Part shown: positions 1 through 3,000 of the stretch, in pieces | How the letters are laid out: each line of letters opens with the position of its first letter | Numbering within the stretch: position 1 is the stretch's first letter | Origin: a virus | Lineage: Duplodnaviria > Heunggongvirae > Uroviricota > Caudoviricetes | Strand: one strand, 5' to 3' | IMG/VR virus record: IMGVR_UViG_2534681878_000037 | Length of the DNA: 21,887 nucleotides | Program-made: the position numbers

Positions 1-3000
1 AAACGTCGACGGGAAACACTTACCGGGACCAATGTTGTACGGACAGAATGACGCGATCCCCGCTTTCTGGGGTTCGGTCAGCGGCACTTTGATTGTTTTT
101 CTCCACCCATGCCAGCGCCTTATCACGCTCAATGGCGTTAACCCGGTCGCTATTTTTTCCTTCGACAGCTTCATGCCAGGAATAACAGGCTTACCATCCA
201 CCCGGGTGGCTCCACGGCAGATGGTCCAGATACCCGCACCATCACGGTATGCTGTGGTGTGGTTACCTTCCTTTTCATCCAGAAACTGGTCGAGGATTTC
301 AGGCGCAGAAGCACCTGCGGCAATCAGCGCCAGAACGGCAGCCGATAAACCATAGCGGAGTTTCCTGCTCATCAGCTTACTCTCCCGTGCCGCCTTACGC
401 CGGTCTTCTTTAATCTTGAATACAGGTTCGTCAGATATGTCAGCAGCCCAAACAGCAGACTCCCCAGCACGCCTATTGCCGCCCACTGAGACGGAGAAAC
501 CCTGTCCAGCAACTGCAGGAACCAGTAGCCCGTCCCCACCGCTGACGTGGTGTATGACACACCTGTTGTGATTTTTTCCATCTGGTACATACCCCGTCTC
601 CCGTTATCCGGAAGCTCACAACATGAAAAAGGCCAGCAGCTGTTTACTGATGGCCCTGACTCCCCGTTACAGCATCATGACCGATTCGGGTTGAGGTTCA
701 GTCGCATCGGCGACCGGTGATTCAGGCTGAACTTCACCGCTCTCTGCGGTGGTATCTCCCGCTTCAGTCGGTGGCTCTGCCTGTACACCAAGCAGCTCAT
801 CCAGAATGGCATCAACCTCTGCATCAAGACGCGCTTCCAGGTTATGGCGAAGTTTCTGTTTCAGTGCGCTCCGGACTTCTTCAGAGCGCAGGACTTCCTT
901 CACTGCTTCAGCAGTGACCAGGGATGTAATTTCTGACATGGGATTTTCTCGTCGAAAGGTGTGATTAAGAAAGTTGCCGCTAAATGAGCGGCTCTTCGGG
1001 TTTGCTTCCGGCTGACTGACTGGCGCTGATTTTCTCAGCGGCCCTTTTGTCAATCTGTCTGCGCCAGAAGTCACGCATGGCCCGGTATCCACCCGAAAGG
1101 AGATACAGCACACAGACCACCGTACAGAAGTACAGCATTAACTGGTTCAGAAATGTCATAATTTCTTTCCGTTATTGTTGACAATAAGAACTGTTTTCAT
1201 TTAAAAAACCAGAGCACGAAAGTATCGTTCCTTTATTTTTTCTCCATAGGTATTACCACCGCCAGCGTCCATTCCTGTCGCTGGCGGTTTTTTTATCATG
1301 CCGCAGTGTCTGTGCTGTTCACTTCCACCGCAATGCTGTCAATCAGCACCGGGTAAGTCGCATTCCTGGTAATGTCTGTCACATGCAGTTTATCCGCCGC
1401 AAATGCACTGACCGGTGACTGCGTCAGCGTGAACGGTGTGCCATCCTGACCATCAATAACCGGCGTCACCTGAAGGCTGTTATTCCCGGCAAAGCGGAAA
1501 GCCAGCGTATGCCATTCGTTATCAAATGCGCCAAAGGTTCCCAGTTTCAGGTTGTTTGTCGCCACTTTCGCATTGTGGTACATCACATTCAGGTCTTTTG
1601 CATCTGTCTGGATGTAGAACGCTGCCAGCAGGTTATTCCCCCCGTCTCCGGTCAGGGCAACGCCCTGTGGCAGTGAAGATACCGGCCAGTAAAACGCCAT
1701 AACATACTGGTTCGCAGCCAGCGCTCCCGAAACCTTAAAGCGGCAGCGAATCTGCCCCCCTTTCTGTAACAGAGCCGCACCGTTGCCCGCGGCGTACTCC
1801 AGCACCCAGCTGCTTTTACCGGCCTCCTTGGTCAGCTTCACTGCCTTACCTCCGGTTCCCTCCGCATCGCTGACCACTTCTGCCCTGCCGCCACTGGCTG
1901 ACCATCCCTGTACTTTCAGGCTTCCCTCTGACTCGCTGGCAAGGTAAGAGAGCAGTGTTGTGACGCCTGTGGCTTCTGCACCGGAAGGCGATGACGGGCG
2001 CACCTCTGATACTGTCGATGATGCCCCCGCGTTTAGCGCCACTCTTCCCGCATGGCGCAAAATCGCCGTTGCCAGACGGTCGGAAATAATCCCACGGCGT
2101 GCTCAGGCGCTGAAATGGCTCGCCCTGTCCTGTGACGTCCAGGTGGCTGAGCTGTCACGCCATTTCGAACCGTAATATCCGATACCCGGAATGTCCGGGT
2201 CTTCTTCCGGTTTGTTCGTCGGCACATTCACCCCGTTCTCATCCGTCATGAACGGTACGAAATGGATATTTTTTTCCGTTTTGTTTTTGTAGCTGCCGTA
2301 CACCGTCTGGTAGGTGGCTTCGTTCTTCTGCTTCCAGAAATACGTCGTGTCCCCGCATATCCAGGGAACACCGTCAGCAGAGCCACCGACGCACTGACCT
2401 GCCATATCCGCCAGGTCTGCACGGAATTTATCAACCAGCGCACCAAACTGTGCTGCGTGATTTGCCGGCGTACCGCCAAAATCAAATTCCCCCTGCATCC
2501 ACACCACGGCAAACAGCACATTTTTCGGGTTCTTCTTCAGTGCTGCTTTTGTTCGACCGATAAGGTCCTTATACAGCGGCTTGTCCACACCCCAGCGGGT
2601 TGAATTCTCCGAAGCACCACTCGCGTCACTGTATGTGCCATCAGCTCCGGTGGTGAACGCTGAACCACCACGACAGCACGGAACCAGCAGAATGCCCGCA
2701 TTCGCCGGTATAAACGGCAGCAATTTTTTGGCGATATGCAGCCCCTGCCCCACGGTTCCGTACTGCCCCTTTGACAGGTCCGCTTTCGGATGGTTAAGGC
2801 GGCTCATGTCCTGCACATCATGCAGACAATGGTCCGCCGGAATGATGTCGTTATATTTACAGGCGACACCGCCCGGTGTCACCGTACTGCGGCGCGCCAG
2901 CTGCTTAATACGCGGGTCCGGACGGTCATATGTCTCCGGCAGCGGAAGGCCTTCACCATATGCCATGCTGTTTGACTGCCCCGCCAGAACCACAATAAAG

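Follow-up and report, generated by a model that had tools for sequence, protein, structure and literature searches.

A nanS-p gene with a single in-frame TGA in the Stx1a prophage of the draft Escherichia coli PA22 genome

The window, which is the whole stretch of 21,887 nucleotides that was analysed (IMG/VR record IMGVR_UViG_2534681878_000037), is the end of contig AKLI01000048.1 of Escherichia coli PA22 (163 kb, assembly GCA_000267085.1). The genes are arranged in the order Q antiterminator, stx1A, stx1B, nanS-p, DUF1378, DUF826, holin and lysozyme, and the locus is the late region of an Stx1a prophage. The nanS-p gene is located about 1.3-3.2 kb from the end of the contig, in the place where NanS-p genes are expected in lambdoid late regions, 3' of stx and 5' of the S and R lysis genes. 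Members of this family have been named z1466/L0105 in phage 933W and vb_24B_21/gp84 in phi24B, and include WP_000142933.1; the PA22 gene resembles them both in this site between stx and the lysis cassette and in coding for DUF1737, SASA/SGNH and lectin-like DUF6645 domains. Its frame runs on the minus strand (3242..1296) and contains one in-frame TGA at 2105-2103. The features of the gene are listed below, with codons compared to those of the closest complete genome, E. coli O157 FDAARGOS_293.

2103..3242, minus strand: 5' part of nanS-p, an ATG-started ORF of 379 codons plus TGA, coding for DUF1737, a linker and the SASA/SGNH domain.
3022, minus strand: second private substitution, GGC (Gly74) in PA22 versus GCC (Ala74) in FDAARGOS_293.
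2103..2105, minus strand: interrupting TGA in the context GCC TGA GCA, corresponding to TGG (Trp380) in FDAARGOS_293.
1296..2102, minus strand: 3' part of nanS-p, which continues in frame for 268 sense codons and ends with a stop at 1298-1296.
1296..1700, minus strand: 134-aa 'DUF6645' ORF of the PA22 annotation, starting at ATG codon 515.

The original prediction placed the end of an SGNH/SASA esterase ORF (2103..3242) at the TGA at 2105-2103 and had the same frame continue open to 1296. Both statements were confirmed: the ORF has an ATG start and codes for 379 aa, and 268 sense codons follow before the TGA at 1298-1296. On the coding strand, the surroundings of the interrupting stop read CAT TTC AGC GCC TGA GCA CGC CGT. 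It was also correct that the downstream part has no in-frame ATG near its start, the first one being codon 515 at window position 1700. The combined length of about 633 codons needs correction, since the actual frame has 648 codons (379 + stop + 268); the lower figure came from the addition of a 254-aa TTG-started ORF at 1296..2060. The annotated 134-aa ORF starts in the middle of the lectin domain without a Shine-Dalgarno match, and is a fragment produced by the splitting of nanS-p rather than a gene.

In the upstream part we identified DUF1737 (PF08410) at residues 3-53 (E = 8.9e-12), as expected of a NanS-p, and SASA (PF03629) at residues 83-279. The SGNH motifs are found on this side of the stop, with GQSN at residues 88-91 and the last block, RASH, at residues 373-376. 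Following the motif names and block definitions of PMC10462455, the final SGNH block is RASH/RSSH and includes the catalytic histidine, His376 in the PA22 protein. Chromosomal NanS (YjhS; PDB 3PT5), a stand-alone esterase, aligned with the catalytic domain over residues 77-396 (E = 1.7e-116), including the segment R(A/S)SHFS-x-x-ARRGIISDR. The GQSN and R(A/S)SH motifs are conserved between the two, whereas chromosomal NanS is without both DUF1737 and the lectin domain and has Ala where NanS-p has Trp380. The 268 codons downstream of the TGA matched Pfam DUF6645 (E = 2.9e-75) and the crystal structure of the NanS-p C-terminal domain (PDB 6YP6, residues 426-643; E = 3.8e-140), from which they differ by one residue. 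They code for the end of the esterase domain (residues 381 to ~396-400), a Ser/Pro-rich linker and the lectin-like jelly-roll (residues 426-643; DUF6645). No family match was obtained in a scan of NCBIfam. Given the DUF6645 and 6YP6 matches downstream, the DUF1737 and SASA matches upstream and a random probability of (61/64)^268, or ~2.5e-6, for an open frame of 268 codons, the open frame 3' of the TGA is not a product of chance.

A full-length homologue (P0032), modelled with AlphaFold2 from a 20-sequence alignment, had pLDDT values below 50 in the catalytic domain and was unusable for placing residue 380, which was placed by sequence alignment to 3PT5 instead. The TGA lies four codons past RASH, inside the esterase domain, ~17 residues before the end of the NanS homology at residue 396 and about 45-46 residues before the start of the lectin domain at residue 426. 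The residue aligned to the stop is Trp in 139 of the 140 homologues fetched and Arg in the remaining one. Trp380 is also invariant in a diverse alignment of 16 sequences with 79-96% identity, where the surrounding block from T367 to R400 is almost entirely invariant. The alignment to full-length homologues that had been proposed as a check therefore shows that a conserved Trp codon, TGG, has been changed to the TGA stop, and supports the view of a NanS-p homologue split by a single in-frame TGA. Since the Trp is invariant, the esterase fold continues past the stop and the lectin domain begins only ~45 residues further on, the stop falls at neither a gene boundary nor a domain boundary. In NanS-p the lectin-like C-terminal domain is fused to the rest in one polypeptide of ~636-657 aa; here it is encoded but cut off by the TGA. 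The earlier idea that a truncated catalytic domain is left behind holds in so far as the esterase is cut, but with the stop following so closely on the His motif it is not a clean 'catalytic domain only' product.

The PA22 annotation, with its two ORFs of 379 and 134 aa, would suit an architecture in which the esterase and the C-terminal lectin are separate genes that meet at a domain boundary at this site, and the homologue in phi24B is indeed cleaved post-translationally between the catalytic and lectin domains. However, the stop precedes the end of the NanS homology as well as the lectin domain, and the invariant Trp that it replaces is situated inside the invariant block of 34 residues. 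The listed full-length homologues are each encoded in one ORF, 629-657 aa long apart from a single case of 730 aa, and in no homologue did we find that two domains meet, or that a new gene begins, where the stop is. In PA22 itself, codon 515 is the first in-frame ATG and the sole start codon with a Shine-Dalgarno match, GTG468, is inside the lectin domain. The two-gene architecture is effectively refuted by these observations, and the TGA is almost certainly an interruption of a normally continuous gene rather than a native feature.

The segment 791-13704 was identical to FDAARGOS_293 except for two bases, both of which are located in nanS-p. One is the base at window position 2103 in the stop codon (plus strand T in PA22, C in FDAARGOS_293). 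The other results in Gly74, within the linker that joins DUF1737 to the esterase domain, at a position occupied by Ala in every listed homologue with the local ...VIS-x-T... motif. The intact gene, present in FDAARGOS_293 and many other O157 genomes, is one ORF of 648 aa (WP_000142933.1). The PA22 sequence matches it in 646 of the 648 codons, while codon 380 is TGA rather than TGG, codon 74 is GGC rather than GCC and the ORF ends at 379 aa. The 807 nt that follow the stop are base-for-base identical to the intact FDAARGOS_293 gene and display no decay, so that the lesion, if real, must be very recent. The PA22 copy is thus interrupted relative to intact orthologues, as represented by FDAARGOS_293 and the 139 homologues with Trp, in the manner of a pseudogene, but the lesion is unique to PA22, being neither shared by relatives nor accompanied by downstream decay.

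Outside the identical segment, a stretch of ~1.3 kb (13705-15013) is missing from FDAARGOS_293. It contains an HTH_Tnp_1 ORF (13758-14084) and an rve integrase-core ORF (14081-14971) and corresponds to an IS3-family element (IS629/IS1203-like) inserted in a ParA-family gene, which is cut to 316 aa. This insertion indicates that the PA22 prophage has truly diverged from that of FDAARGOS_293. On the other side, the 3' half of DUF826 (604-790), ~500 bp downstream of nanS-p, is an allele unlike that of FDAARGOS_293, with dense substitutions and indels, and marks either a mosaic junction or an assembly switch between paralogues. The matching Stx1a prophage in FDAARGOS_293 (NZ_CP022050.2, 4227861-4254350) adjoins mlrA; it looks defective, as the gene for the large terminase is truncated and another integrase gene comes immediately after it. 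In typical O157:H7 strains, WP_000142933.1 is encoded by a different, stx-less prophage, downstream of Ile/Arg/Arg tRNA genes.

We also examined the distribution of the TGA allele. None of 5,426 complete E. coli genomes contained an exact match to a 61-mer centred on the TGA: among 520 matching records, none reached an identity of 99% or more and 516 were in the range of 95-99%, the best one listed being one base off. A 26-mer with the TGA, in which the preceding codon was left free, was absent from IMG/VR, the GTDB representative genomes and a metagenome collection, whereas the same pattern with TGG was present in 39 viral contigs. The exact 379-aa product (EIN87599.1, E. coli PA22) occurred a single time, on one contig, among ~15 billion proteins. 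Since the 'repaired' protein with Gly74 and Trp380 was also absent among 15 billion sequences, both substitutions are private to the PA22 assembly. The TGA allele is private to one draft assembly from 2012, and because it has been seen solely there it is the result of a sequencing error or else a knockout that happened very recently. Of the options originally put forward, a nonsense mutation, a sequencing error or low-level readthrough, the set was the right one, and the first two now take up nearly all of the probability.

We estimate the probability that the TGA is a real, very recent nonsense mutation in nanS-p at roughly one half. A G:C to A:T transition, as in the change from TGG to TGA, is the type of mutation that arises spontaneously most often, and disrupted nanS-p genes have already been documented in Stx phages. 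The IS3-family insertion, a real departure of this prophage from FDAARGOS_293, counts in the same direction. A serious contender, to which we give somewhat less than even odds, is a sequencing or consensus error, in which case the coding-strand A at 2103 is wrong and the organism has TGG and an intact NanS-p of 648 aa. The distribution data fit such an error, in that the exact truncated protein is confined to one contig of one assembly, and the TGA form was obtained neither from the complete genomes nor by scanning the viral, GTDB-representative and metagenome collections, compared with 39 viral contigs for the TGG form. So does the absence of decay downstream of the stop, as well as the location of the gene near a contig end in a block that is repeated ~10 times per O157 genome; queries with nanS-p matched ~8-14 places per O157 genome (about 10).

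The quality of the contig end is also relevant to this question. The terminal 420 nt contain at least five indels of 1 nt in homopolymer runs of T, C and A (at 93, 151, 153, 383 and 418 relative to FDAARGOS_293), which frameshift the lysozyme and holin genes, for which proteins identical in many genomes served as the reference. The lysozyme frame is lost for ~19 codons and the C-terminus of the holin is frameshifted, reading ...[18 protein letters not shown] in PA22 versus ...[17 protein letters not shown] in FDAARGOS_293. The indels in 1-420 are probably draft-assembly errors. Furthermore, the GCC to GGC change at codon 74 resembles, in our reading, the over-calling of one homopolymer paired with the under-calling of the next (G1C2 to G2C1). 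Both private changes are located within a multi-copy gene of 1.9 kb, out of an identical stretch of ~12.9 kb, and none in ~15 kb of flanking unique sequence, a clustering that fits a locally poor consensus better than a mutational clock.

Against an error stands the nature of the change itself: the central base of a GGG run has been substituted in a clean G-to-A transition, which is not an error in homopolymer length. Beyond the first 790 nt, there were no indel discrepancies over ~17 kb. Mixing of reads from paralogues cannot have created the A, since it was not present in any of the homologues or matching sites examined; a chimeric consensus was rejected on the same grounds, with neither A at 2103 nor Gly74 in any of these sequences. 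A search for papers on the sequencing platform and coverage of PA22 returned nothing.

A third scenario is that the UGA is leaky in a functional manner, with most translation yielding a 379-aa protein of DUF1737 and the esterase core and a minority of ribosomes reading UGA as Trp to give full-length NanS-p. Near-cognate decoding of UGA by tRNA-Trp is a known leak route in E. coli, and here it would insert the ancestral residue into a downstream frame that is fully intact. Basal UGA leak is expected to be ~1% or less. Shorter forms of the protein are also natural, as illustrated by gp84 of phi24B, which is cut into N-terminal, catalytic and C-terminal pieces (bioRxiv 10.64898/2026.04.10.717836). 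However, the stop is conserved in no relative, which means that nothing has been selected, and its flanks are identical to those of genes with TGG, so that a context favouring readthrough has not evolved. A 79-nt segment comprising the stop and the sequence behind it folded no better than shuffled sequences (z = -0.42), Rfam yielded neither a SECIS nor any other hit at this position, and tRNA genes were absent from the window. We consider functional readthrough very improbable, and the same low probability applies to its corollary that, with a real stop, two products are made, an abundant 379-aa protein that keeps DUF1737 and a rare full-length NanS-p formed through tRNA-Trp. If true, the two-product situation would offer a natural setting in which UGA leak could be measured in an O157 background, and a test of whether capsid decoration can be uncoupled from esterase activity.

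Other routes to the C-terminal part were rejected. No SECIS or other recoding element was found in an Rfam scan of 1200-5600 with E-values up to 1, and together with the unremarkable fold and the residues of the homologues at this position, 139 Trp and one Arg with no stop or Cys among them, this argues against selenocysteine insertion or programmed recoding. A phage-borne suppressor tRNA was not supported, as ARAGORN identified no tRNA in the window; the tRNAs upstream of the same nanS-p allele in related O157 prophages are Ile/Arg/Arg, none of them a suppressor. Reinitiation was dismissed for lack of a start codon with a Shine-Dalgarno match before GTG468, the only such codon, which is 42 residues inside the lectin domain.

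Returning to the nonsense mutation, we considered its consequences on the assumption that the deposited base is real. The gene would then be a very recent loss-of-function allele of a prophage-borne 9-O-acetyl sialate esterase. By analogy with lambda, nanS-p would be transcribed from pR' under Q antitermination, as has likewise been suggested in PMC10462455. Translation would end four codons after His376 and yield a product of 379 aa, or ~41 kDa at 110 Da per residue. This product would retain DUF1737 and all SGNH motifs, but its esterase fold would be missing the final ~17-20 invariant residues, and both the linker and the entire lectin-like carbohydrate-binding domain would be lost. Because the C-terminus of chromosomal NanS is located ~20 residues beyond the position of the stop, the truncated protein would be shorter than even the minimal natural enzyme. 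It is probably misfolded, unstable or weakly active. Rare decoding of the UGA by tRNA-Trp would restore the wild-type residue, presumably as an incidental leak rather than a mechanism. Polarity on the lysis genes is unlikely under a Q-modified polymerase.

EHEC also carries a chromosomal nanS gene. Given this gene and the ~10 nanS-p copies in related O157 genomes, the effect on the cell should be small, and loss of this copy would be buffered by the others, provided that PA22 has the same redundancy. In EDL933, for example, 7-10 nanS-p alleles are functional (PMC8065619). A real stop would hence mean that one of about ten redundant nanS-p copies has been lost in one O157:H7 isolate, with no phenotype expected. 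If it is an error, EIN87599.1 ought to be combined with the 134-aa DUF6645 fragment to give a single NanS-p of 648 aa. In either case the significance is slight beyond annotation hygiene, and the example cautions that split genes in multi-copy prophage repeats of early draft genomes need a check of the reads before they are given a biological reading.

Esterase function has been demonstrated for NanS-p alleles of 933W and EDL933 (reviewed in PMC8065619), and the three-domain layout and the structure of the lectin domain are credited to Franke et al. 2020. In phi24B, gp84 is reported to decorate the capsid, with DUF1737 binding to hexons, and to be processed between domains (2026 preprint, 10.64898/2026.04.10.717836). 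Disrupted nanS-p genes in Stx2a phages include IS629/IS1203 insertions that give rise to the 634-aa 'CTR3' and 461-aa 'CTR2' alleles (PMC10462455). The PA22 allele is similar to these in being a strain-specific truncation on the C-terminal side of nanS-p, as seen in prophages of O157 and other STEC. It differs in that CTR3 and CTR2 are due to IS insertions and leave the esterase domain whole, while in the PA22 allele, known from a single assembly, a point nonsense change falls within the esterase domain. As an interrupted copy of a gene that is already known, the PA22 gene is ordinary; it adds only a real or apparent point-nonsense allele in a single draft genome, and nothing suggests new biology.

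The regions on either side of nanS-p contained a few matches to small RNAs in Rfam. In the spacer between stx1B and nanS-p there is an STnc100 sRNA gene on the minus strand (3450-3663; 190.7 bits, gathering score 47) and an AgvB sRNA gene on the plus strand (3389-3448; 56.6 bits, gathering score 56), the latter overlapped by a sub-threshold match to AsxR. Just beyond the stop codon of nanS-p, a weak Esr41-like match on the plus strand (1219-1296; 29.6 bits, gathering score 102) overlaps a terminator-like site that consists of a hairpin and a T-run (1275-1287, plus strand), and is probably a terminator only.
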